From a phage: DNA of 64,000 nt. The translations under genes were made by a program, and so were the position numbers. The stretch lies in sequence record PZ445432.1; one strand, 5' to 3'. Of this stretch, positions 5,796 to 54,813 are shown in pieces (within the stretch, counting starts at the first letter, position 1; each line of letters opens with the position of its first letter). The notes beneath the pieces were generated by a model. It did not search any database. It had not been told where the DNA came from and was given only the letters and a program-made list of their open reading frames with translations.

Positions 5796-7258
5796 ATATC
5801 GCTGGCCTGTTCACCTGTTGAATTTTCAGTTTTATCTTTCTTAGCACGTTTAGATTGAGCTGGCTTATCCTTTTCAATAGGGATAATGAACTCAGCTTCC
5901 ATTTGAGATATATCTTCCATTGCTAGGTTGGTAGTGTTATCCATCCGCAGAGTTTCCCAGTTCATCTTAGGCATAAACTTCACGCTACCAGAAGAACGGG
6001 TCTTAACGAAGTCAAACATAATAGCACCTTGACCATTATCAGCTTTTGCAGCATTAAGATTAGCAGCCATGTCTGCGGAATCAAGAATCCCCTTTGACAT
6101 ACGTGTTCTACCATCTTGATCGATCTGGTAAGGAGCTACGCCAGCCACGTTATGTTTCTGGCAGATAGATTTGAAAGACGAGCTAACAACCATCTGTTCT
6201 TTCCAGTCATACATATCAATGGTTTTAGAATCTGGAAGTCGGGTTTGGTTAATATAGTCAAGTAAAGCTACTGTAACCTTATCCCCATATCTAGCAACTA
6301 ATTTATTTAACTCTACGTCAACTGTTGTAATAGACAGCTCAGGGTCATAAACAATAATCATAGGAGTATGTAGCTCATATCCTTCTATTAGCTTACTTTC
6401 CATATCGTAGAAATCACTCATCTTAGCCATTGTGTACTGTTTAACGAAGTTATCGAAAAGCTCTTCACCACCATTAAACATTCTAGCTCTAGTTCTGGCT
6501 AATCTCAACAGAGCTGCACCTTCTAGAGTATTATTACGCATTGCTAATGCTGATACACCAGCTAACATGGCTAGATTACGTCTAAATACTTCATGTTCTT
6601 TCATCTCAATTGAGAAGTATGGAGCAATATCCCCATTCAAATATTGCTGAACCTGTATGTTTGAACAGATAATGGATTTACCAGTACCACGCCAACCACC
6701 AAGCAGTAACGTTTCTGTGCGAGCTAAACCAATTTGAGCGTCGAACTCATTACAAATACCAAGAGCGATTAAATTCAGTTTGGTATCTTCTTCTCTCTGG
6801 AAAATACGCATGTTATCTGCGTTGAATACTTTCCCAGTATTCGTTACTTTCTCTTCTAATTTTAAGTGAAGGGAGGCAACTCGGTTAAGAATTTCTCCCT
6901 GATCCAGCATTGTTAAATCTTGAAGCACGTCTGTTTCTAGAAGCTTCAGGAATAAATCCTGTGTATACTCGGCCTCTAGGACTTCAAGTGCCTGTTCCAT
7001 GCTAACTTCTGGAATTTGAGTGTTAGCTAAAACGACTAGAGCTTGAGAAAGGCGGGCGTTCCTATTAGCCTCAAGCATCAGTGCGTCAATGGACGGCATT
7101 GTGTTATATTTTTTATAATAATTCTGGACGGCTTGGTAAATTGAGGAGAAAGCGTCATTAAAATGATCTTTATGCAGTTTTGAGAATGTTTCCAATGCTA
7201 TTTGCTTCTGTTCGGAAGCTAGAAGCATCTTCAACACTACAGCTTGCACGTTAAACAT
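5792..7258 (-). CDS. DnaB-like replicative helicase / RecA-fold ATPase
   Basis: 488-aa ORF with Walker A GGWRGTGKS; translationally coupled to the primase ORF. Confidence 0.65.
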   Translation of the reverse strand: MFNVQAVVLKMLLASEQKQIALETFSKLHKDHFNDAFSSIYQAVQNYYKKYNTMPSIDALMLEANRNARLSQALVVLANTQIPEVSMEQALEVLEAEYTQDLFLKLLETDVLQDLTMLDQGEILNRVASLHLKLEEKVTNTGKVFNADNMRIFQREEDTKLNLIALGICNEFDAQIGLARTETLLLGGWRGTGKSIICSNIQVQQYLNGDIAPYFSIEMKEHEVFRRNLAMLAGVSALAMRNNTLEGAALLRLARTRARMFNGGEELFDNFVKQYTMAKMSDFYDMESKLIEGYELHTPMIIVYDPELSITTVDVELNKLVARYGDKVTVALLDYINQTRLPDSKTIDMYDWKEQMVVSSSFKSICQKHNVAGVAPYQIDQDGRTRMSKGILDSADMAANLNAAKADNGQGAIMFDFVKTRSSGSVKFMPKMNWETLRMDNTTNLAMEDISQMEAEFIIPIEKDKPAQSKRAKKDKTENSTGEQASDI

Positions 7259-7832
7259 TATTTAGCAACTCCTCTGTAAAGTTATCCGCTATATTCTGCG
7301 GTTTAACCCTCTCTATATCTAGAGCATCTAGGGCTGCGAAATCTCCGTACAAGGCTAAAAGCAGCTTATCTCTATACCACAGAGCTTCTCCTAGAGTTTT
7401 TAGGGTTTTTCTAAATACTTTGGAGTTTTTAGATATGGTTACTTTAAATGTGTTATTTTTTGTTACTTCTATGTTACGAATGCCTAGCTTGTTACCTATA
7501 AAGCTATTAGCGGAATTTTGAGAGGAAGTAACTTCACGTAAGTTATTCCAAGTATTATCAGTTTTAATTCTATTTTTATGATCAACCTTGTCAGGGATTT
7601 CTCCTTCCATATATAGAAAGGCCCACCTATGCGCTCCCATAGATTTTTGTATACCTGACTCTAAGGTTATCTTTATGTAAATATAGCCTGATGAATGCAT
7701 ATAGCCTGCAGGTTTGTTAGCGTGCTTAGCATTGAACGCAGGATTATTTTCTCTAGGTAGCCAGTAGAAATTTCCAGTATCAGGCTCATATCTTAATAAT
7801 GTTTTAAGATACTGCTGGGTAATCTCCCCCAT
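7251..7832 (-). CDS. HNH homing endonuclease
   Basis: VDHKNRIKTDNTWNNLREVTSSQNS HNH motif; one of four paralogs (also 26080, 33761, 54277). Confidence 0.8.
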   Translation of the reverse strand: MGEITQQYLKTLLRYEPDTGNFYWLPRENNPAFNAKHANKPAGYMHSSGYIYIKITLESGIQKSMGAHRWAFLYMEGEIPDKVDHKNRIKTDNTWNNLREVTSSQNSANSFIGNKLGIRNIEVTKNNTFKVTISKNSKVFRKTLKTLGEALWYRDKLLLALYGDFAALDALDIERVKPQNIADNFTEELLNNV

Positions 7833-7891: not shown

Positions 7892-8659
7892 TTATTCAGC
7901 AGCCGCAGCTTTTGCATCCAGTTTAGCACGCTTAGCGGCACCATCATAGTCCTTAGCAACCAGACCACGACGAGACAGCATAGATTTAACACCGCGCTCA
8001 GACTTACCAGTTTTCTCAGCGATCTCAGCAACAGTCATGTTAACCAGATCCAGACCTTCTAACAGATCTTCACGAGTTTTAGCACTTGAGGTTTCCTGTA
8101 CCGGCATAGCAGCGATACGACCTTCACGAAGCAGACTCAGAGCTTTACCACGGATCTGTTTGATATTACGACCGAAGTGAGCAGCGATAGCTTCAATAGT
8201 AGCCCCAGCAACAACCTGATTAACAAAGTCAGTTTCTTCATCCGGAGTGAAGGAACGAACAGCAGCAGTTTTTTCGGTTGGTTTAACAGAAGCGGTCATT
8301 TCCAGACTCAGGATCTTACCCTGTACCTGTTTAGCACCGAACTGACCACCAGCCACAGCAGCAGCGATTTCAGCATAAGTATACTGACCAGCATGAGCGT
8401 TCAGGAAATCAACCAGTTCAGCTTCCTGCTCAGGAGTCCACGGGGATTTCTGTACTTCGTTAGCTTTCTGTACTTCAAAACCTTCTTTACGCAGTTTAGA
8501 GCCAACAGAGCGAGCAGTAACATCTTTGCCAGTTTCAGCAGCCAGTTCAGCGGCGATAGCAGCTACTTGTTCTTGAGAGATTACATCAACACCCAGAGCA
8601 GTGGCTTTTGCTTTCAGAGACTCGGTTACACCTTCTACGTTCCAGTTCAGTTTAGACAT
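7892..8659 (-). CDS. putative abundant DNA-binding protein (T5 D5-like)
   Basis: 255-aa Ala/Lys/Glu-rich ORF with host-optimal codon bias; assignment is by position and composition only. Confidence 0.45.
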   Translation of the reverse strand: MSKLNWNVEGVTESLKAKATALGVDVISQEQVAAIAAELAAETGKDVTARSVGSKLRKEGFEVQKANEVQKSPWTPEQEAELVDFLNAHAGQYTYAEIAAAVAGGQFGAKQVQGKILSLEMTASVKPTEKTAAVRSFTPDEETDFVNQVVAGATIEAIAAHFGRNIKQIRGKALSLLREGRIAAMPVQETSSAKTREDLLEGLDLVNMTVAEIAEKTGKSERGVKSMLSRRGLVAKDYDGAAKRAKLDAKAAAAE

Positions 8660-9434
8660 TATTATTTTTCTCCAATAGTTCTTTAATCGACAGGATTTCT
8701 ATCCCATTCGTTTCGGCTTTCTTATAAGATGAGGAAGAACGCTTCGATTCATCCTCACAGATTAGGTATTTGACGTCTTTGGTAACGGATTTCTTAACCG
8801 TATATCCTAGACCTTCTAAATAGTTTGTTGCATCCGTTCTATTTGCAAAATCTTGCAAAGATCCGGTAATACATACCGCGATTCCATTTGGCTGGGCAGC
8901 TAATTCATCCGTAGTGATAATATTAGCTTTAGTGCCCTTAATACCAGTTGAGAATTTCCACGGTAGTTCGATAACATCCTTGCCTTGTGGGGAATTTAGC
9001 CAGGCTTTGTAATTTTCTCCAGCCTTGCCGTCAGCCTTCACATCATGGAAGCTAGTGCAATTTTGGGATAATTTCTTTGCTGCAACCTCTCCAATTAGAG
9101 GGATTCCTAAAGAACCGAGAACTGAACCAAAGTCAATGTCTCCGCGAACTTTAGTATTTAATTCGCTAGTTAACTTAGCGGCAACCTTGCTACCCACGGC
9201 TCTAACCAAATCTTCTTCGGTTAGGTAAAATAGTTCTGAAATCTTCGTCAGCTCCAGCTTCTCAATAGTTTTTGGGCCAAAGCCCTTTAACTTCATTTTT
9301 GAACAGAAGTTCTCAATTAACTTGCTTGATTGCGCTGGACAGTTGGACTTATTACGACAGAATAATTGTCCGTTGACAAGATCTAGCTTAGAACCACAAG
9401 AGGGACATTGTGTTGGAATTTCGATTTTCATCAA
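8652..9434 (-). CDS. ligB: NAD-dependent DNA ligase, C-terminal subunit (Zn finger, HhH, BRCT)
   Basis: CPSCGS ... C ... CPAQ zinc-finger pattern typical of LigA, HhH-like region, BRCT-like AVCITGSL. Confidence 0.8.
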   Translation of the reverse strand: MMKIEIPTQCPSCGSKLDLVNGQLFCRNKSNCPAQSSKLIENFCSKMKLKGFGPKTIEKLELTKISELFYLTEEDLVRAVGSKVAAKLTSELNTKVRGDIDFGSVLGSLGIPLIGEVAAKKLSQNCTSFHDVKADGKAGENYKAWLNSPQGKDVIELPWKFSTGIKGTKANIITTDELAAQPNGIAVCITGSLQDFANRTDATNYLEGLGYTVKKSVTKDVKYLICEDESKRSSSSYKKAETNGIEILSIKELLEKNNNV

Positions 9435-9461
9435 ATTTCTTCCTTATCAATTTATATAAAT

Positions 9462-9490
9462 ATTATAGCAAGTATTTAAGCATTTAGCAA
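9462..9490 (-). promoter_or_regulatory. sigma70-like promoter between the two ligase ORFs
   Basis: Reverse complement gives TTGCTA, 17 nt, TATAAT, followed by the leader cassette. Confidence 0.5.
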
Positions 9491-9633
9491 CTACAATTTT
9501 AATTAACTTTGCTTACCCTCGCCATAACTTTCTATCCCTCAACTGAATGATAATAGTATATACCTAAGCGGCGAAAATGTCAATAACCACTTTATAATTC
9601 CGATATGGTAGATGGGTAGCAAAGGGTTATGTA

Positions 9634-10605
9634 TTAATCGTATACTCGCTCTACTATGCACGGGATTACACCACCAGCACGAATCACTCGAATCTGGCAA
9701 CCGATCTCTAGATCGAGAGAGTTAATATAATCAACGTTATTAAGAGTTGCTTTAACAATTGTAGCATCATCAATAATTACCGGTTCAAAATAACCAACTG
9801 GAGTTACTTTACCCGAAGCCCCCACCTGCCATTCAACTTTAGTAAGAGTTGTAATCTCGCCTTCTTCATCCTCTTTAATAGCGAATGCTCCACGAGGGAA
9901 TTTATTAGTCCAGCCTTCACGGAAGAATTTGTTGTTATCATTAATACGAACAACTTTACCGTCCGTCGGAATCCATTTAAAGAAGGAACGCACATTAACA
10001 ACTGTTAAGAAGTTCTCATTCTCCAGCCAAAGCATATCTTTTAAGTATGATTCTGTAATACCTACAGATTCAGCAGAACACTGGATACCATATGCAACGA
10101 AGATTAAACCACCTTCCCCAATGCGTTGTACGAAATCATCACTATCTTTGAGGTTAATAGCACCAGAGGCAAAGTTACGTTTATTTTCTACTTCTTTTGT
10201 AATTAGAACTTCACCAGTTATTTGAGTAGGTACTTTTTGGGAAATCTTTTTAGGAATATTCAGCAATCTTACGTTGCTTGTGACATCATTCCCTAGAATA
10301 CCGTTACCACGAGTTAGTGCTTGAACAAATTCGCCGTTAATATACAGCAGAGAAATTGCACAACCATCTAACTTATCGGTTTCCACCTGACCTAAAGGAT
10401 TGAATGGTGGTTTATCACCACGGTTATAGTAAACTTTCTGTAAAGAATACATACGATATAGATGTGGAATATCACCCTTAGGCCCGATCTCTTCCTCTAA
10501 TGGGAAGCGTTTTACCAGACGATCATATTCTTCATCAGAGATTAAAGACATTCCCTGGTAATATGCTTCTTGGCAACGTTTAATAAAGTCTTTTACATTA
10601 GTCAT
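9634..10605 (-). CDS. ligA: NAD-dependent DNA ligase, N-terminal adenylation/OB subunit
   Basis: KLDG adenylation motif (KLDGCAISLLY) and an OB-fold-like C-terminus (IRVIRAGGVIP). Confidence 0.8.
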   Translation of the reverse strand: MTNVKDFIKRCQEAYYQGMSLISDEEYDRLVKRFPLEEEIGPKGDIPHLYRMYSLQKVYYNRGDKPPFNPLGQVETDKLDGCAISLLYINGEFVQALTRGNGILGNDVTSNVRLLNIPKKISQKVPTQITGEVLITKEVENKRNFASGAINLKDSDDFVQRIGEGGLIFVAYGIQCSAESVGITESYLKDMLWLENENFLTVVNVRSFFKWIPTDGKVVRINDNNKFFREGWTNKFPRGAFAIKEDEEGEITTLTKVEWQVGASGKVTPVGYFEPVIIDDATIVKATLNNVDYINSLDLEIGCQIRVIRAGGVIPCIVERVYD

Positions 10606-23500: not shown

Positions 23501-23644
23501 GTGGCCAAAAACTAGACTGACAACACAGAAGGCCTGGGTATGAAAGTACTCGGGCCTTTTCTATCAGAAAATTTTATTTGCCAAATGACTGAGAATAAAG
23601 TAAACTATTTCCTAAATCCTGATAACTATAAAAAGGAAAGCCAA

Positions 23645-25978
23645 ATGAGCCATCGCATTGAAAAGGTAATTAAACGTGACGGTACTGTAGAAGACTTTGC
23701 TCCTGAAAAACTCAATGGTTGGGCAGAGTATGGTTGCAAAACAGTTGATGTAAGTTGGTCTGCCATTACTATGGCTGCTCAAAAAACTCTGCCTAAAGGG
23801 GTTGTAGATTCCGACACTCTGATGGATGCGTTAATTAAAGCTGCTGAAAGTCTTATCAAAGATAATCCAGCATACGACGTGCCAGCAAAGGAATTACGTC
23901 TTGCGCAGATGCGTAAACGCCTTTATGATTCCTTTGAACCACCTTCTCTACGCTTCTTCCACGATCATATGGTTAGTGTAGGTGCATGGGAAGACATGAG
24001 TGCATGGATTACCGATGAGCAATTTGAAGCTCTGAATCAGGTTATCGACCATGATCGTGACCGTCTTTTCACTAGTGGAGGACTGAAACAATTCTTTGAT
24101 AAGTATTCCCGTCGTAACATAGCCACCGGTGAAATTTATGAAACCCCGCAGTTTGCCTACATGGGTATGGCAATGGCGATGCTATCTCAACCTAACTGGA
24201 CAATTCTCGATGCAATCGACCTATACAACGCAATGTCACTCCACAAAATCAACGTTCCTACGCCGCCACTGGTTGGTCTGCGCTCTAGTGATCGTGGATT
24301 TGCTAGTTGTTGCCTCGTTGATTCCACTGACACATTGGATTCAATCGACACAGCCGAGCACATCGTTTTTAAAATGGTCGCAGCCAGAGCGGGAATCGGG
24401 TATCATCTTGAAAGCAGATCAATTGCTGATCCGGTGCGAAATGGGGCATTCCCGCATTCCGGAAAACTGCCATATTATCGACACATTGACCGCTCAGTAA
24501 AGGCCAACACTCAGCAAACTCGTGGTGGTTCTGCTACAGTGTCTTATCCATACTTTGATCCTGAAATCATTCAGTTGATGCAGGTTAAGCAACAACGTGC
24601 TACAGACGAGAATAAAATCGATAAGATGGATTATTCTCTGAGCTTCAACAATCTTTTGTTAAAACGTTATCTTAAAAATGAAGATATTACGCTAATGTCA
24701 TACTTCTATGCTCCGGAAGTTCATGAAGCGTTTTATAGTGATGACGAGGCTAAATTTGAAGAAATCTATGTGGCAGCGGAGAAACGTGTGGCATCTCTTA
24801 CAAAGATCGACCACGAAGGAAAAACAGTTCCAGCAGCTCCTAAAGTCTCTGCAAAAGAAATCCTAGATACTTGGCTGCGTATCCGAATGGAAACAGGACG
24901 TATGTATGCCCACCACATTGGGGAATCTAATCGTCACGGTAACTTCCTTGATCCGATCCGTATGACAAACCTTTGTGTTGAAATTACTCAGCCTACACGC
25001 CCGTTCCATCATATCACGGAACTGTATAAAACGAAAGAGCAGCTTGACCAAATGAAGCCGGAGGATATTGGGGAAGTATCTCTATGTAACTTAGGTGGTG
25101 TTGTACTAGGACGCATGGAATCTCTAGCTGAGTGGGAAAAAACTTGCTACATCCTCCTGAAATTCGTTGATACAATTATTGAAATTCAGGATTATCCGTT
25201 CCCAACTATGGAATATACGGCTAAGAAACGTCGTAATGTTGGTATTGGCCTGATGAACGCAGCAGGTGCAATGGCAGCAGAAGGTCTGGCTTATGAAGGT
25301 ATTGAAGCCCGTAACTGGATTCACCGTGAGGCTGAAAAACTGTCTTACTTCCTGCATAAAGCCTCTGTACGCCTAGCTAAAGAACAGGGTGCATGTGAGT
25401 GGTTTGATCGTACTAAACCATCTAAAGGAATTCTGGTAATCGACACATACAAGAAAACTGTTGATGAGCTGGTATCCGTAGGTCTAGAAATGGATTGGGA
25501 ATCTCTGCGTGCAGATATTCTGAAATACGGTATGCGTAACTCTGTTCTGACTGCGCAGATGCCTGGAGAAAGTTCCTCTGTACTATTGGGTGTTACCAAC
25601 TCAATTGAGCCACCTCGTAGGATTGTATCTATCAAGGGTAGTGCAGTGAATAAAGTAATTGCAATTGCTCCGGGTGCAACTGATTGGGATACTCTCATGA
25701 GCTATAAACTGGCCTATGATATTGATCGCACTGAGTGGATCAAATGGAACGCCGTTTACCAAAAATTCTTGAGCCAGTCATCAAGTTTCCAGATGTATTA
25801 TGATTACTCTAAATTCGAGAATGAAATCATTCCTGGCCCAGTAGTAGTTCGTGACTTTATGACTGCGGTTAAGTATGGTATAAAGACCTGGTATTATGCT
25901 AACTTTAACACTGCGAATGGTGGAGGAGCTGGTGAAGAGGCGGCAACAGGTTGTGCATCAGGCGGTTGTCAGTTATAA
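23645..25978 (+). CDS. nrdA: ribonucleoside-diphosphate reductase, large subunit
   Basis: ATP-cone N-terminus (KVIKRDGTVEDF) and class I RNR core; start at an internal ATG with RBS (track ORF starts at 23540). Confidence 0.85.
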   Translation: MSHRIEKVIKRDGTVEDFAPEKLNGWAEYGCKTVDVSWSAITMAAQKTLPKGVVDSDTLMDALIKAAESLIKDNPAYDVPAKELRLAQMRKRLYDSFEPPSLRFFHDHMVSVGAWEDMSAWITDEQFEALNQVIDHDRDRLFTSGGLKQFFDKYSRRNIATGEIYETPQFAYMGMAMAMLSQPNWTILDAIDLYNAMSLHKINVPTPPLVGLRSSDRGFASCCLVDSTDTLDSIDTAEHIVFKMVAARAGIGYHLESRSIADPVRNGAFPHSGKLPYYRHIDRSVKANTQQTRGGSATVSYPYFDPEIIQLMQVKQQRATDENKIDKMDYSLSFNNLLLKRYLKNEDITLMSYFYAPEVHEAFYSDDEAKFEEIYVAAEKRVASLTKIDHEGKTVPAAPKVSAKEILDTWLRIRMETGRMYAHHIGESNRHGNFLDPIRMTNLCVEITQPTRPFHHITELYKTKEQLDQMKPEDIGEVSLCNLGGVVLGRMESLAEWEKTCYILLKFVDTIIEIQDYPFPTMEYTAKKRRNVGIGLMNAAGAMAAEGLAYEGIEARNWIHREAEKLSYFLHKASVRLAKEQGACEWFDRTKPSKGILVIDTYKKTVDELVSVGLEMDWESLRADILKYGMRNSVLTAQMPGESSSVLLGVTNSIEPPRRIVSIKGSAVNKVIAIAPGATDWDTLMSYKLAYDIDRTEWIKWNAVYQKFLSQSSSFQMYYDYSKFENEIIPGPVVVRDFMTAVKYGIKTWYYANFNTANGGGAGEEAATGCASGGCQL

Positions 25979-25987
25979 TAAAAACAA

Positions 25988-26010
25988 GGAGATCTTCGGG
26001 TCTCCTTTTT
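25988..26010 (+). terminator. rho-independent terminator after nrdA
   Basis: GGAGATC-TTCG-GGTCTCC hairpin followed by TTTTT. Confidence 0.6.
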
Positions 26011-26024
26011 CTTTGAAATTTTAC

Positions 26025-26053
26025 TTGCTAATCGCTACCAGATTTGCTATAAT
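26025..26053 (+). promoter_or_regulatory. sigma70-like promoter
   Basis: TTGCTA, 17 nt, TATAAT. Confidence 0.5.
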
Positions 26054-26079
26054 ATCTCCATTAGTTAAGGAGATTAGTT

Positions 26080-26595
26080 TTGATAACACAAGATGAATTA
26101 AAAAGGATTCTGGAGTATAATCCAGATGAAGGAACATTTACTTGGTTAAATAACCAGGAAGTACACAATAAAGTAAGGGGACTACCTGCTGGCTGTTTAA
26201 AACCCCACTCAGTAGATCCTAACCGAAAAGACTTAGTAATACAAATCAAGGGTAAGAAGTATCCCGCACAAAATATTGCTTTCCTGTACATGACAGGAAA
26301 CTTACCTAAAGTTATGGTTGACCATATAGATGGAGATTCACTAAACTATAAGTGGGCTAATCTAAGAGAAGCAGACTGGCAGTTAAATAGTCAAAATAGA
26401 AAAACTAGTAAAAACAATATATTGGGTACTAAGAATATTCGGAAGAAAGGGTCTGGATTTCAAGTTAGAAAATCCATTAACGGAAAAGAATATGTGAAAA
26501 CTCTCCCAACTCTAGAAGAGGCGATAGAGTATCGAGATTCTTTAATCCTCTCTATAACCAAAGATCCAACACTACTTAGAAACACAGATAAATAG
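26080..26595 (+). CDS. HNH homing endonuclease (between nrdA and nrdB)
   Basis: VDHIDGDSLNYKWANLREADWQLNSQN HNH motif; TTG start preceded by AAGGAG. Confidence 0.75.
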   Translation: MITQDELKRILEYNPDEGTFTWLNNQEVHNKVRGLPAGCLKPHSVDPNRKDLVIQIKGKKYPAQNIAFLYMTGNLPKVMVDHIDGDSLNYKWANLREADWQLNSQNRKTSKNNILGTKNIRKKGSGFQVRKSINGKEYVKTLPTLEEAIEYRDSLILSITKDPTLLRNTDK

Positions 26596-26603
26596 GAGAA
26601 CTA

Positions 26604-27749
26604 ATGACAACTTTACTTAACTTAAACTGGGATCATACCAATAAAGATCTATTTCTCGGTGATTCTCTTGGTATTGCAGATTATGTACGAGTAGCCCATC
26701 CAGAGCTGGAAAGGCTGGCGTTATTAGCTCGCTCTCAATTCTGGACTGAAACTGAAATCAGTCTGGAAGCAGATAAGAAACAATGGCCTAATCTCCCACG
26801 AGAAATTCAGGAAATTACCCTCCTGAATTTAGCATGGCAGACTCAAACTGATTCCTTTATCAGTCGAGCGCCTGAAGCAGCTATTATGCCACTTGTAAGT
26901 CGTCCAGAATTGGAAGGTATGCTAAAGCAGTGGAGCTACTTCGAAGACCTGCATAGTCGCGCCTATAGCAATATTATTCGTAATGTGCTGACTGATCCAG
27001 CAGAATTTATTGATTCTGTAACCAAAAACCAGGAAGCATTCGCACGCATCGCTGATTCTGTTGAACTGTTCGATGAACTGTATCAGTTAGGTCAGTATTT
27101 CCTCGCAGTACGCGATCATCGTGGTGACAATACATATCCAGAAACTGAGTTCCCTGAAGTTAAACGTGAAACTCAGGCTAAACTATTAGACGCTTACTTT
27201 GCGATCTATGGTCTGGAAGCAATGCAGTTTTACGCATCCTTTGCATGTACTTTTGCTCTAGCAGAGAACGATATTCTGCAAGGTATTGCTAAGAACCTGC
27301 AATTAATCGCTAAAGATGAGGCTCTGCACACCCAGATGTCTAAAGCAATCATCCAGATTATGTTCCAGCAGTTTGACAAAGATCTGGTAGATGAAGCAGT
27401 GGCTAAAGCACCAGCACAGCTCCTGAAAACTCTGAAAACTGAAATTGAATGGGGTCATTTCATTTTCAAAGGTCGTAGTCTGATTGGCTTGAATGCAGAA
27501 CTTCTAGAAGAATATCTGTACTTTGTGGGGCGTAATGCATTTATGCACATCGGTGTAGAATGGCCTAGTCATTTACCAGTAATCACTAAGAACCCCATTC
27601 CGTGGATCATGAACTGGCTGGATACCACTTCTTTACAGCCTGCTCCACAAGAAATCCAGATTGGTGCAGCCTACCGTGTAGGTCAGGTAACTGAGACCTC
27701 TACTGATACTCTGAAAGATCTGGGTAATGAATTTGGAGATTTCTTATGA
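26604..27749 (+). CDS. nrdB: ribonucleoside-diphosphate reductase, small subunit
   Basis: 381-aa ORF with ferritin-like E..H segments, immediately following nrdA and the HNH ORF. Confidence 0.8.
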   Translation: MTTLLNLNWDHTNKDLFLGDSLGIADYVRVAHPELERLALLARSQFWTETEISLEADKKQWPNLPREIQEITLLNLAWQTQTDSFISRAPEAAIMPLVSRPELEGMLKQWSYFEDLHSRAYSNIIRNVLTDPAEFIDSVTKNQEAFARIADSVELFDELYQLGQYFLAVRDHRGDNTYPETEFPEVKRETQAKLLDAYFAIYGLEAMQFYASFACTFALAENDILQGIAKNLQLIAKDEALHTQMSKAIIQIMFQQFDKDLVDEAVAKAPAQLLKTLKTEIEWGHFIFKGRSLIGLNAELLEEYLYFVGRNAFMHIGVEWPSHLPVITKNPIPWIMNWLDTTSLQPAPQEIQIGAAYRVGQVTETSTDTLKDLGNEFGDFL

Positions 27750-32443: not shown

Positions 32444-32626
32444 ATGCCAGTATCTAAAAATGTTCGTAAAAATGGTAAGAAAGCTACTCGTAATCTGGGT
32501 ATCCGTCGTATGGCCGAACGTCAATCAGGTGTCCAGAAAATCTTTGATCTGTTAAATCGTGCTAATCCTAAAATTGATAACAGTAATGATACTGTTCTGC
32601 GCACTCTGCTGGCAATTGGTCTGTAA
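32444..32626 (+). CDS. hypothetical small basic protein
   Basis: 60-aa ORF downstream of a promoter-leader cassette. Confidence 0.45.
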   Translation: MPVSKNVRKNGKKATRNLGIRRMAERQSGVQKIFDLLNRANPKIDNSNDTVLRTLLAIGL

Positions 32627-33760: not shown

Positions 33761-34582
33761 ATGGGTAAATTACAAAAACAAATACTACCATATATAGATT
33801 ATATCCGAGAAATTATAGAGTATAATCCCTATACTGGTAAATTATTCTATAAGCCTAATAAATATAAGAATAAAACTTGGCATACTTTATATGCTGGGAG
33901 AGAAATATGTAGTAAGAACTCTGATGGGTACATCAGAGTTAGTTTGCTCTTAGATAATAAACCCACAATTATTTATGGACACCGAATAGCGTGGCTCCTT
34001 CACTATGGGGAGGAACCACCTGCTATGATTGATCATATAAATACTATACCGTGGGATAATAGAATTATTAACCTAAGAGAGACAAATTTTAAGTTAAACA
34101 GACTTAATACTAACAAAACGGTAGGTGTAGAGCTGCTGCCAGAAGGATTTGTGTACAGCATTACATTAGGTGAAAAGTTTTTTGTATCCCCCGGCTTCCC
34201 CACTTTCGAACAAGCTAAAGTGGAAAGAGAAAAACTAGTAAATGGTTTATGTAATGCAGAAATTGGGAAGCAGACCAATATTCTAATAGACGATGTTAGA
34301 GATTTACCTGAAATGTCCATTATTTGTCGTACAGTTATAGGTGCGCTGGAACTATCAGATGTGTTTAGTTTCACAGGATCCTATTTATTTATGGACTCAG
34401 ATTTAGGAGATTCAGAGGTACAAGGAAAAGATTTATTAGATCATATACTATTATTAGGTCAAAGACCCCTAAAAGTGATTCTAGTAACATCTAATCCTGT
34501 TGACGCAGAGTACATGAGAGGTACTCTTACGTCTTATGGATACCGAGAAAATCCCAATAGATTAGAATATGATCTATTTTAA
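33761..34582 (+). CDS. HNH homing endonuclease
   Basis: GHRIAWLLHYGEEPPAMIDHINTIPWDNRIINLRETN HNH motif. Confidence 0.7.
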   Translation: MGKLQKQILPYIDYIREIIEYNPYTGKLFYKPNKYKNKTWHTLYAGREICSKNSDGYIRVSLLLDNKPTIIYGHRIAWLLHYGEEPPAMIDHINTIPWDNRIINLRETNFKLNRLNTNKTVGVELLPEGFVYSITLGEKFFVSPGFPTFEQAKVEREKLVNGLCNAEIGKQTNILIDDVRDLPEMSIICRTVIGALELSDVFSFTGSYLFMDSDLGDSEVQGKDLLDHILLLGQRPLKVILVTSNPVDAEYMRGTLTSYGYRENPNRLEYDLF

Positions 34583-37903: not shown

Positions 37904-38422
37904 ATGACTGTTGATGAACTAACAGAACATCTCTTATCTAGAGGGTTTGATACAGATAAGTATCATTGCTGGTTAAGTCCGGAAGGATGGCTAACAGTCC
38001 CGTTGTATGACTTCTCTGGGATGTTGAGAGGCTATCAGACTTATAATCCTTCTGCTCCAAAAGGTCATGGTAAGTGCCCCTTTGAAGCTAAATATTTTAC
38101 TTATTCAACTACACAGTGTGTATGGGGATTAGAAACTCTCAATGGAGATGAAAAAGTAGTATTGATTGCTGAATCTGTATTTAAGGCAGTTGCGTTACAT
38201 AACGCTGGTTATCCAGCCCTGGCAATGTTGGGTTCTTCCCCCGGAAAAGCATTGTTAAAGCAATTGAAATTATTACCTTTTAAATTGGTAGCTGTCGGAG
38301 ATAATGATCCTGCGGGTGAAAAATTTGCTAGAAAATTAAACGGCTTTGTTTCTCCTGTAGATGTAGATGAGATGTCTACCGAAAACTTGAAAAATTTTCT
38401 TGCTATGAAGCTAAATTTCTAA
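37904..38422 (+). CDS. Toprim-like domain protein
   Basis: VVLIAESVFKAVALHNAGYPALAMLG ... VAVGDNDPAGEKFARKL resembles a TOPRIM fold. Confidence 0.45.
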   Translation: MTVDELTEHLLSRGFDTDKYHCWLSPEGWLTVPLYDFSGMLRGYQTYNPSAPKGHGKCPFEAKYFTYSTTQCVWGLETLNGDEKVVLIAESVFKAVALHNAGYPALAMLGSSPGKALLKQLKLLPFKLVAVGDNDPAGEKFARKLNGFVSPVDVDEMSTENLKNFLAMKLNF

Positions 38423-39120: not shown

Positions 39121-39193
39121 GGGGTGTAATCGAATTGGCATAGGTACTGTACTTAAAATTCAGGTTTTGTGGGTTCGAATCCCAGCGAGGCGT
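39121..39193 (+). tRNA. tRNA-like element (anticodon-like loop TAA; acceptor stem does not pair)
   Basis: Good T-arm (GTGGG-TTCGAAT-CCCAG) and anticodon-like hairpin CTGTA-CTTAAAA-TTCAG, but no 5'/3' acceptor pairing found; a -10 TATAAT lies upstream. Confidence 0.25.
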
Positions 39194-54004: not shown

Positions 54005-54283
54005 ATGGAAAACATGACTAAAGACTTCGACGCCTCTAACCTTACCAAGACTGAAATGGCCAATGTATTAGCAATTCTCCTCGACATGCAAGGATTTGAG
54101 GGGCAACTGATGAAAATGTCTATTCCGGCGATGAAGAAGATGTATGATTCTCTTAACAAGAACGCCATGGCCTTTAACTTAGCAAAACAAGAGGCACGCT
54201 TTGCTAAGGAGCACCAAGCAGTGGCAGAACGCCGAGCAGCTAGCTTTGAGCGTGAAGTTAAGCAATTAAAGAAAAAATGCTAA
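54005..54283 (+). CDS. hypothetical protein
   Basis: Start moved to the ATG after the GAGAGG leader; the track's ATG at 53987 lies inside the conserved leader. Confidence 0.45.
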   Translation: MENMTKDFDASNLTKTEMANVLAILLDMQGFEGQLMKMSIPAMKKMYDSLNKNAMAFNLAKQEARFAKEHQAVAERRAASFEREVKQLKKKC

Positions 54284-54813
54284 CACAAGAAAGATTAAAA
54301 GAGCTATTTGAATACCGCCCGGAAACGGGCGAGTTTATTAGATTAGTAAGTATAGGTAATCAAAAAGCTGGTAGTACTGCTGGCTGTCTAAGAAAGACTG
54401 GGTATATAGAAATAAGAGTAGATAAAGTAGGCTACAAAGCACATCGACTAGCCTTCCTCTATATGGAAGGTTATATTCCCGAAGTAATAGACCACGTAAA
54501 TCGTATACGGAGTGATAATAGGTGGGCTAACCTTAGAGAATCTAATAACCAAGAAAATTCTAGAAATAGAACAGCAAGGAGCAAATCATGGTATTTGGGA
54601 ATCTTTTGGCATAAACAAAAGCAAAAATGGGAAGTAAGGGTTGTAGATTCGTACAAAAAGTTAGTGCATGGTGGGTATTTTGATTTTCTAGATCTAGAAT
54701 TAGCGGTTCAAAGAGCTAATGAACTACGTTTAGAACTACATGGGCCTAACGCTGTTATAGAAACTTTTGATCATACAAAACCCTTACCTACTTTAGAGGA
54801 ATTAAATAAATGA
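54277..54813 (+). CDS. HNH homing endonuclease
   Basis: IDHVNRIRSDNRWANLRESNNQENS HNH motif. Confidence 0.75.
   Translation: MLTQERLKELFEYRPETGEFIRLVSIGNQKAGSTAGCLRKTGYIEIRVDKVGYKAHRLAFLYMEGYIPEVIDHVNRIRSDNRWANLRESNNQENSRNRTARSKSWYLGIFWHKQKQKWEVRVVDSYKKLVHGGYFDFLDLELAVQRANELRLELHGPNAVIETFDHTKPLPTLEELNK

Follow-up and report, generated by a model that had tools for sequence, protein, structure and literature searches.

The window, that is, the whole stretch of 64,000 nucleotides of phage DNA that was analysed (sequence record PZ445432.1), carries the ribonucleotide reductase genes nrdA and nrdB with a small open reading frame (ORF) between them. The nrd region of the window is 100% identical to that of Escherichia phage HildyBeyeler (Bas33, MZ501074.1), a T5-like phage of the Demerecviridae (Tequintavirus), and record position 32483 of MZ501074.1 corresponds to position 1 of the window. 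The window also shows a 5-kb deletion relative to that record, and GenBank coordinates beyond 39184 are not transferable to it.

The ORF at 26080-26595 is the ortholog of T5 hegH (T5.095; P-/F-TflVIII), with 98.6% DNA identity over the full length, and is called the hegH-type gene here. In T5, too, it lies between nrdA and nrdB and follows the same promoter. Its position between nrdA (23585-25978) and nrdB (26604-27749), as pointed out in the first-pass annotation, is confirmed by the ORFs and by the GenBank annotation. The features of the locus are the following:

23585..25978, + strand: nrdA, large subunit of class Ia ribonucleotide reductase, upstream neighbour of the hegH-type gene (ORF and GenBank annotation)
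25986..26007, + strand: terminator-like hairpin (AAGGAGATCTTCGGGTCTCCTT and a T-run) after nrdA, native to the locus (scan)
26025..26053, + strand: strong sigma-70 or T5-early-type promoter-like site, TTGCTA-17 nt-TATAAT with an extended TG (scan, 10/12 matches)
26056..26603, + strand: inserted cassette (alignment of occupied with empty alleles; span of 1825 against ~1302 nt)
26080..26595, + strand: hegH-type gene, an HNH_3 homing endonuclease gene for 171 aa with a TTG start (Pfam, PHROG, I-HmuI alignment, GenBank annotation)
26604..26729, + strand: recoded tract, the first 126 nt of nrdB (strictly linked with the hegH-type gene, mostly synonymous)
26604..27749, + strand: nrdB, ribonucleotide reductase small subunit, second cistron behind the hegH-type gene (ORF and GenBank annotation)

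The hegH-type gene is an ORF of its own in the intergenic region that separates nrdA from nrdB, outside any intron or intein. The cassette begins only 2 nt past the -10 hexamer of the promoter, and the native nrdB leader of ~29 nt is replaced by it. The gene is preceded by a cassette-borne Shine-Dalgarno (SD) sequence, AAGGAG (26067-26072). The new SD of nrdB, AGGAG (26594-26598), is likewise supplied by the cassette and overlaps the stop of the hegH-type gene. A gap of 8 nt separates this stop (26595) from the nrdB ATG (26604), and the scan found neither a terminator nor a promoter between the two.

The hairpin is conserved in saus47N, GreteKellenberger, Th1 and BSP22A, as seen in the junction alignment. 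The promoter is nearly identical in the empty alleles, where it lies directly 5' of nrdB, and it is an annotated promoter in T5. In saus47N and GreteKellenberger, which are without the gene, the same terminator and promoter are followed by the leader of ~29 nt and then by nrdB. Since both signals recur almost unchanged in relatives without the gene, they represent the native nrdA terminator and the native nrdB promoter and are not carried by the insertion. The first-pass annotation had credited the hegH-type gene with its own promoter, but this promoter belongs to nrdB and is present in alleles without the gene. It had also described the gene as flanked by terminator and promoter signals; one of each does exist, although both lie upstream and none lies downstream. 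As the cassette replaces the native leader and supplies the SD of nrdB, the hegH-type gene and nrdB would constitute a bicistron, expressed as one transcription unit behind a captured nrdB promoter.

Family and predicted structure of the endonuclease

The product of the hegH-type gene matches the Pfam family HNH_3 (PF13392) with 31.9 bits against a gathering cutoff of 24.8 (E 1e-7), and PHROG 99, 'HNH endonuclease', with an E value of 1.9e-45. Three other ORFs of the window belong to the same family:

7251..7832, - strand: HNH_3 homing endonuclease gene between the genes for the replicative helicase and a D5-like DNA-binding protein (Pfam, PHROG, alignment)
33761..34582, + strand: fusion of an HNH_3 module (aa 1-171) with a T5.084-like gene that has a cREC_REC domain (Pfam, junction alignment)
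54277..54813, + strand: HNH_3 homing endonuclease gene with a weak Pfam AP2 match, E 0.012 (Pfam, PHROG)

All four ORFs score above the Pfam gathering threshold of HNH_3 (E 1e-7 to 1e-14) and match PHROG 99 (E 1e-34 to 1e-61). Their alignment, which had been suggested as a check, contains 20 invariant columns over the whole HNH part, including the D-H, N-L-R-E and N..N motifs, with pairwise identities of 25-40%. Further, an HMM built from the four retrieves exactly these four among the 348 six-frame ORFs of the window. The agreement goes well beyond chance, and the four are, as had been proposed, true paralogs. A search of mid-size ORFs, in the tRNA region and in other parts of the window, gave no further homing endonuclease gene; the matches were to Band_7, Toprim, Gly_radical and DUFs. 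The GenBank label 'putative homing endonuclease' already stands on the hegH-type gene and on the copy at 7251-7832.

The same HNH organisation had been claimed for all four. This holds for the shared HNH part, but the copy at 33761-34582 is an in-frame fusion. Here, the HNH module is placed in frame right after the ATG of the cREC_REC gene (105 aa in AKFV33), resulting in a fusion ORF of 273 aa. The insert has G/K after Met at its start and Ile after its end. The module is labelled as an intein in GenBank; this label was rejected because Pfam finds HNH_3 and cREC_REC but no Hint domain, and neither junction has a C, S or T residue.

The catalytic centre can be compared with that of I-HmuI, an enzyme that nicks one strand. 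Residues D81, H82, N94 and N103 of the hegH-type protein align on D74, H75, N87 and N96 of I-HmuI with identical spacing, within an overall alignment that is weak (E 0.43). These four residues are invariant in all four paralogs of the window and in all intact orthologs. At another position, in the upstream 'AHR' strand, a His that the other three paralogs and the alternative endonucleases of the locus all have is replaced by Gln. This position is not among the catalytic residues of I-HmuI. The Gln is kept in all orthologs, even the most divergent ones, and is thus a feature of the lineage and not a recent lesion.

An AlphaFold model, built from the alignment of the four paralogs, has a mean pLDDT of 70, which is moderate. 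At this confidence, it places strands at residues 79-82 and 95-98, followed by a helix at 100-108, the elements that would be expected of a beta-beta-alpha-metal fold. The C-terminal part (aa 120-160) is modelled as a module of three strands and a helix (beta-beta-beta-alpha) with a pLDDT of ~88. When the model was compared with the PDB by Foldseek, no structure reached E <= 0.001, and the top hits did not include an HNH structure. AP2 domains are among the best of the weak fold matches, at E > 1, and give the best structural hints for the C-terminal module: 7et4 (probability 0.82, rmsd 1.7 Å over 44 columns), along with 6sy0 and 3jtz. A significant AP2 match in the ORF itself was found neither by Pfam nor by Foldseek. 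The comparison with the HNH-AP2 homing endonucleases of Magnani et al. is based on the modelled order of an HNH_3 core and a module of three strands and a helix. The module at aa ~120-160 probably represents an AP2-like domain for DNA binding, and the protein as a whole probably has an HNH-AP2 architecture. Its N-terminal module carries the motif YxPxxGxFxW.

I-HmuI of the Bacillus phage SPO1 (PDB 1U3E) falls in the same HNH_3 group. It is, however, encoded within an intron and equipped with NUMOD/HTH modules, whereas the hegH-type gene is free-standing and combines the YxPxxGxFxW module with the probable AP2-like one. In the classification of His-Me finger proteins, I-HmuI, HNH_3 and the AP2-linked phage proteins form one group, while T4 MobA-E and T5 F-TflIV form another (PMC5714182).

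Distribution, competition and decay at the locus

Much of what concerns the gene is known biology. The gene, its family and the parallel with T4 mobE have been annotated and published. T5 hegH carries the annotation 'putative H-N-H endonuclease P-TflVIII', and its counterparts in DT57C and DT571/2 are called 'nicking homing endonuclease F-TflVIII'. A literature search for F-TflVIII or TflVIII returned annotation-level mentions and no biochemical characterisation. The presence or absence of the hegH-type gene between T5-like genomes has been tabulated (PMC5816814), homing endonucleases are described as the main source of differences among such genomes (PMC10644984), and the mobE parallel was drawn for the T5-like phage AKFV33 (PMC3326045). 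What is added here is that the promoter is a captured nrdB promoter and that nrdB has a recoded tract with sharp bounds, together with a specific, testable prediction of the target site.

DNA of the hegH-type gene was found in 75 phage records, always in full length and at >=90% identity, while the flanking nrd genes are present in 439-527 T5-like records (about 440-530). The relatives that lack it have either a precise empty site (~1302 nt against 1825 nt) or a different HNH_3 gene. The Th1/AKFV33-type and BSP22A-type genes share the insertion point of the HildyBeyeler gene; the NBEco001-type gene does not, and lies upstream of the promoter. These alternative types show 29-43% identity to the HildyBeyeler protein and are no closer to it than are the paralogs elsewhere. 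There are at least three other types of HNH_3 endonuclease that compete with the HildyBeyeler type for the nrdA-nrdB locus.

Members of two genera, Tequintavirus and Epseptimavirus, carry the HildyBeyeler/T5-type gene, with 95-99% identity in the gene itself and 85-94% in the flanks. The distribution of the gene among the T5-like phages of these two genera is sporadic, which is the behaviour of a free-standing homing endonuclease. The presence/absence polymorphism that was to be looked for in relatives exists for all four genes of the window. Besides the 75 of about 440-530 records for the hegH-type gene, the copy at 7251-7832 is present in 12 of 443 relatives (it is absent from T5), that at 33761-34582 in 27 of 442 and that at 54277-54813 in 62 of 338. 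The first-pass view of free-standing homing endonucleases that spread between related phages, and are probable sources of mosaicism, is borne out by this sporadic occurrence, by the precise empty alleles and by the linked recoded flank that is described below. The positions of such genes, together with the sequence dragged along with them, account for the mosaic patches seen in nrdB and other essential genes. This is of relevance to the comparison and typing of T5-like phages and to cocktails made from them.

The alleles of the gene differ at their 3' end. In HildyBeyeler and DT57C, the stop is TAG, 8 nt 5' of nrdB. In T5, Shivani and Es2, CAG stands in place of TAG, and the frame continues for 3 more codons to a TAA that overlaps the nrdB ATG. 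For the seven intact orthologs, most dN/dS values lie at 0.05-0.07 (range 0.02-0.18), and dS reaches 0.6. The protein is under strong purifying selection, and the dS of up to 0.5-0.6 between alleles shows old residency and not only recent spread. The reading frame of the HildyBeyeler copy is intact. Frameshifting indels were observed in 4 of the 11 orthologs examined, all four of them from Epseptimavirus: atrejo and 8sent65 have a common AT insertion, and bastian and S132 each have +1 in an A-run. The frameshifted copies fit the decay phase of an invasion-decay cycle, although the single-base changes in A-runs could be sequencing errors. As regards the refuting case of inactive remnants fixed in all relatives, the findings are to the contrary: presence is polymorphic for all four genes, and the hegH-type gene retains its catalytic residues and is under purifying selection.

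The recoded nrdB tract and the proposed homing mechanism

The 5' end of nrdB differs between phages with and without the hegH-type gene. In a sliding comparison with HildyBeyeler, the first ~150 nt of nrdB show 91-99% identity in four phages with the gene against 72-76% in phages with an empty site or another endonuclease gene, and farther into nrdB the two classes are alike. The same was seen with more alleles. Over nt 1-126, identity is 90-99% in 11 alleles with the gene against 72-75% in 5 alleles without it or with another type, while over nt 127-690 the identity ranges of the two classes (n = 11 and n = 5) overlap. Fixed differences, defined as sites where the two classes have no base in common, occur only at nrdB nt 40, 87, 109, 117, 118 and 124-126 (window positions 26643, 26690, 26712, 26720, 26721 and 26727-26729). 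The 475 nt that precede the insertion contain none, and neither do nrdB nt 127-690. The recoding is mostly synonymous, with two amino-acid changes, K/A at residue 14 and A/Q at residue 42.

The boundary of the tract is based on 16 sequences and on two database-wide histograms of identity. In the first of these, a 130-nt piece from the 5' end of nrdB gives a bimodal distribution, with 78 records at >=90% identity and the rest at <=82%; this agrees closely with the 75 records that carry the hegH-type gene, and the excess may include genomes with an immune allele but without the gene. Similarly, the Th1-type endonuclease gene is present in 29 records, and its own nrdB 5' allele is found in 29 records at >=95% and in the rest at <=84%. 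Such a tract is the signature that would be expected of a homing cassette copied along with the stretch up to the cut site, the host allele being immune. With its sharp end at 126 nt, it turns into a concrete and testable prediction of the target site. In Shivani, the second recoded patch (nt 109-126) is present and the first patch (nt 36-54) is partly of the 'empty type', which suggests that it is the second that would confer immunity. The last ~300 nt of nrdA (25679-25978) are mosaic among the relatives and show no linkage to the hegH-type gene.

Another occupant of the same niche is MobE of T4, a free-standing HNH endonuclease encoded in the nrdA-nrdB intergenic region of an unrelated phage family. 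Homology between the two was rejected, with a BLASTP E value of 9.6 and different Pfam families, PF01844 (HNH) for MobE and PF13392 (HNH_3) for the hegH-type protein; within the His-Me finger proteins, MobE is assigned to group 1 and HNH_3 to group 2. MobE is known to nick T2 nrdB on its non-coding strand, at nt 122-126, and in mobE progeny the recombination points fall within the first 189 nt of nrdB (PMC2790892). The T4 gene is promoterless and co-transcribed with nrdA (PMC2790892); in contrast, the hegH-type gene, judged from its sequence signals, is preceded by both the nrdA terminator and the nrdB promoter. In the protein alignment, T4 NrdB has one extra residue, by which T4/T2 nt 122-126 correspond to nt ~118-123 of the T5-like nrdB. 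The fixed differences are densest at nt 117-126, a stretch that includes these nucleotides. The end of the tract, at nt 126, is at a position homologous to the MobE nick site (T4/T2 nt ~122-129), which by analogy suggests that the target lies there.

Taken from its sequence, the hegH-type gene very probably encodes a functional, free-standing, I-HmuI-like HNH_3 homing endonuclease. In a mixed infection with a relative that lacks the gene, the enzyme would site-specifically nick or break the 5' region of the incoming nrdB. A nick would be expected, because both I-HmuI and T4 MobE nick. The most likely position of the cut would be nrdB nt ~109-126. Recombinational repair from the genome carrying the gene would then copy the cassette and everything from the insertion point up to the cut (nrdB nt 1 to ~126), and the synonymous recoding would make the occupied allele immune to its own enzyme.

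Alternative readings and the nrdB target

The tract could also be a hitch-hiking remnant of the original donor and not the target or immunity region. The cut would then fall outside nrdB proper, either in the empty nrdB leader, at the place of insertion or close to it, or in nrdA at its 3' end, and the recoded stretch would have travelled passively from the first donor. The insertion destroys the native ~29-nt leader, and this alone would be enough for immunity if the site were there; the 3' end of nrdA is also highly polymorphic. However, fixed differences are lacking over all 475 nt upstream of the insertion, and the linkage of the nrdB tract with the gene is perfect in both genera, although recombination is evident on either side of it. 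Moreover, a second, unrelated endonuclease type has a linked nrdB 5' allele of its own, and MobE offers a precedent for a cut at the homologous position in nrdB. A target outside nrdB is considered rather unlikely, though it deserves serious consideration.

Other readings concern the reason for which the gene is kept. A dN/dS of ~0.05 with dS of up to 0.6 speaks for long-term maintenance of the protein, as would be seen if it served mainly as a weapon or exclusion factor that nicks competitors in co-infection (marker exclusion), or as a regulator whose AP2-like domain binds the leader or the 5' region of nrdB so that nrdB expression is tuned, with homing being secondary. The location of the gene inside the nrdB transcription unit, directly 5' of nrdB, and the competition of several types for the same locus agree with such roles. 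Nevertheless, most T5-like phages do well without the gene, frameshifted copies exist, and the tight linkage to a recoded flank is what homing predicts. A primary role of this kind appears improbable, and it would not exclude homing, for the same cut would serve both. It is still harder to credit that the gene is an inactive, non-cutting remnant, which persists only because its deletion would disturb nrdB expression. The ORF is intact and has all four equivalents of the I-HmuI catalytic residues, and a dN/dS of 0.05-0.07 over the whole protein is unexpected for a dead gene. The His-to-Gln change in the conserved 'AHR' strand would favour a remnant, but the Gln is conserved in all orthologs. 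The dependence of nrdB on an SD from the cassette, the frameshifts in 4 of 11 orthologs and the lack of published activity in the literature searched are the remaining points on that side, and the probability of this reading is considered very small.

If homing with a target inside nrdB is accepted, the target codons adjoin, on the upstream side, a conserved Phe-Trp pair that corresponds to W48 of E. coli R2. Constrained sequence such as the Phe-Trp region is a typical target of homing endonucleases. As MobE and the hegH-type protein are dissimilar in sequence and fall into separate Pfam families, their targeting would be convergent, provided that the target is correctly placed. A wider proposal, which we put forward tentatively and hold to be somewhat less than an even bet, is that the nrdB 5' codons just upstream of Phe-Trp are a common hot spot for homing endonucleases in two unrelated phage families, reached convergently by HNH enzymes of groups 1 and 2. 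At least two, and probably four, T5-like HNH_3 types would then each be locked to a synonymously recoded nrdB 5' allele of their own. If this holds, these phages would provide a natural series of immunity alleles with which target recognition could be dissected.

Mosaicism and insertions around nrdA and nrdB

The 3' end of nrdA, which lies just upstream of the HNH_3 homing endonuclease gene (HEG), is a mosaic patch, as was seen from identity comparison of window 25679-25978 with relatives. HildyBeyeler shares 97% identity over 25679-25828 and 89% over 25829-25978 with saus47N, a relative that lacks the HEG at this locus, and only 75-86% over the whole of 25679-25978 with the HEG-carrying phages T5, DT57C, NR01 and Shivani. 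It follows that there is a recombination breakpoint between nrdA and the HEG. The polymorphism over this 3' patch is unlinked to the HEG.

The spacer between the two genes has also received another endonuclease. Phage NBEco001 (L004) carries at 2103-2708 a fourth HNH_3 HEG type of this locus, and the nrdA terminator 5' of it differs (GGGGCGAAAGCCCC). This gene lies upstream of the nrdB promoter, while the others lie downstream of it; therefore, the nrdA-nrdB spacer has been invaded at two distinct points.

In some relatives, including Salmonella phage Shivani (L007, 405-3647) and SHSML-45, nrdA itself contains an extra in-frame insertion of about 909 bp, for which the annotation gives an intein splice site. 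The window does not have this insertion, which adds a mobile element of a second kind to the same RNR operon.

Variation in the HEG and its antisense reading frame

Orthologs of the HEG are frameshifted in four Epseptimavirus genomes, namely atrejo, bastian, 8sent65 and S132 (L013-L016). An AT insertion is common to atrejo and 8sent65, and the frameshifts of bastian and S132 are +1 changes in A-runs. The HEG-type allele of nrdB nt 1-126 is kept in all four.

The stop codon of the HEG is polymorphic as well (window 26593-26606). It is TAG in HildyBeyeler, DT57C, NR01 and JNwz02, and CAG in T5, Shivani and Es2, where the protein is extended by 3 aa to a TAA that overlaps the ATG of nrdB. The polymorphism may alter translational coupling to nrdB.

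There is also a short reading frame on the strand opposite the HEG, overlapping its 5' half.

26061-26291 (2819-3049 in L009, the DT57C sequence), - strand: antisense ORF of 76 aa

In DT57C, RefSeq names this ORF 'HNH endonuclease / putative P-TflVIII', a label that looks like an annotation artefact; it is the + strand that encodes the HNH_3 protein here.

An endonuclease module fused to a host gene

Another HNH_3 module of the window is joined to a host gene.

33761-34582, + strand: 273-aa ORF, HNH_3 module fused to a T5.084-like cREC_REC-domain gene

The module (aa 1-171) is placed in frame, directly 3' of the start codon of the host gene, which encodes 105 aa in AKFV33. Endonuclease and host gene are read through without an intervening stop, giving the 273 aa in total. 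The part of the host gene 3' of the module diverges strongly from the HEG-less allele. The GenBank label 'intein' for this module was rejected, as a Hint domain is absent and the junctions lack C/S/T.

The tRNA region and the DNA ligase annotation

In comparison with GenBank MZ501074.1, 5,040 bp are missing from the window, and past the junction (about 39164-39184) the coordinates of that record are shifted by this length. The junction falls within a shared tRNA T-arm sequence (GGGTTCGAATCCCA) and joins the 5' part of tRNA-Leu(TTA) to a tRNA-like 3' end from downstream. About 10 annotated tRNA genes are gone with this loss, which resembles the tRNA-region deletions of classical T5 mutants. Also in the tRNA region, a small protein of 172 aa (37904-38422), annotated as hypothetical, has a Toprim-like domain (PF13155, E 2e-5).

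Elsewhere, the NAD-dependent DNA ligase (8652-10605) is annotated as two separate ORFs with a gap of about 200 nt between them.

8652-9431: NAD-dependent DNA ligase B subunit, as annotated
9634-10605: NAD-dependent DNA ligase A subunit, as annotated
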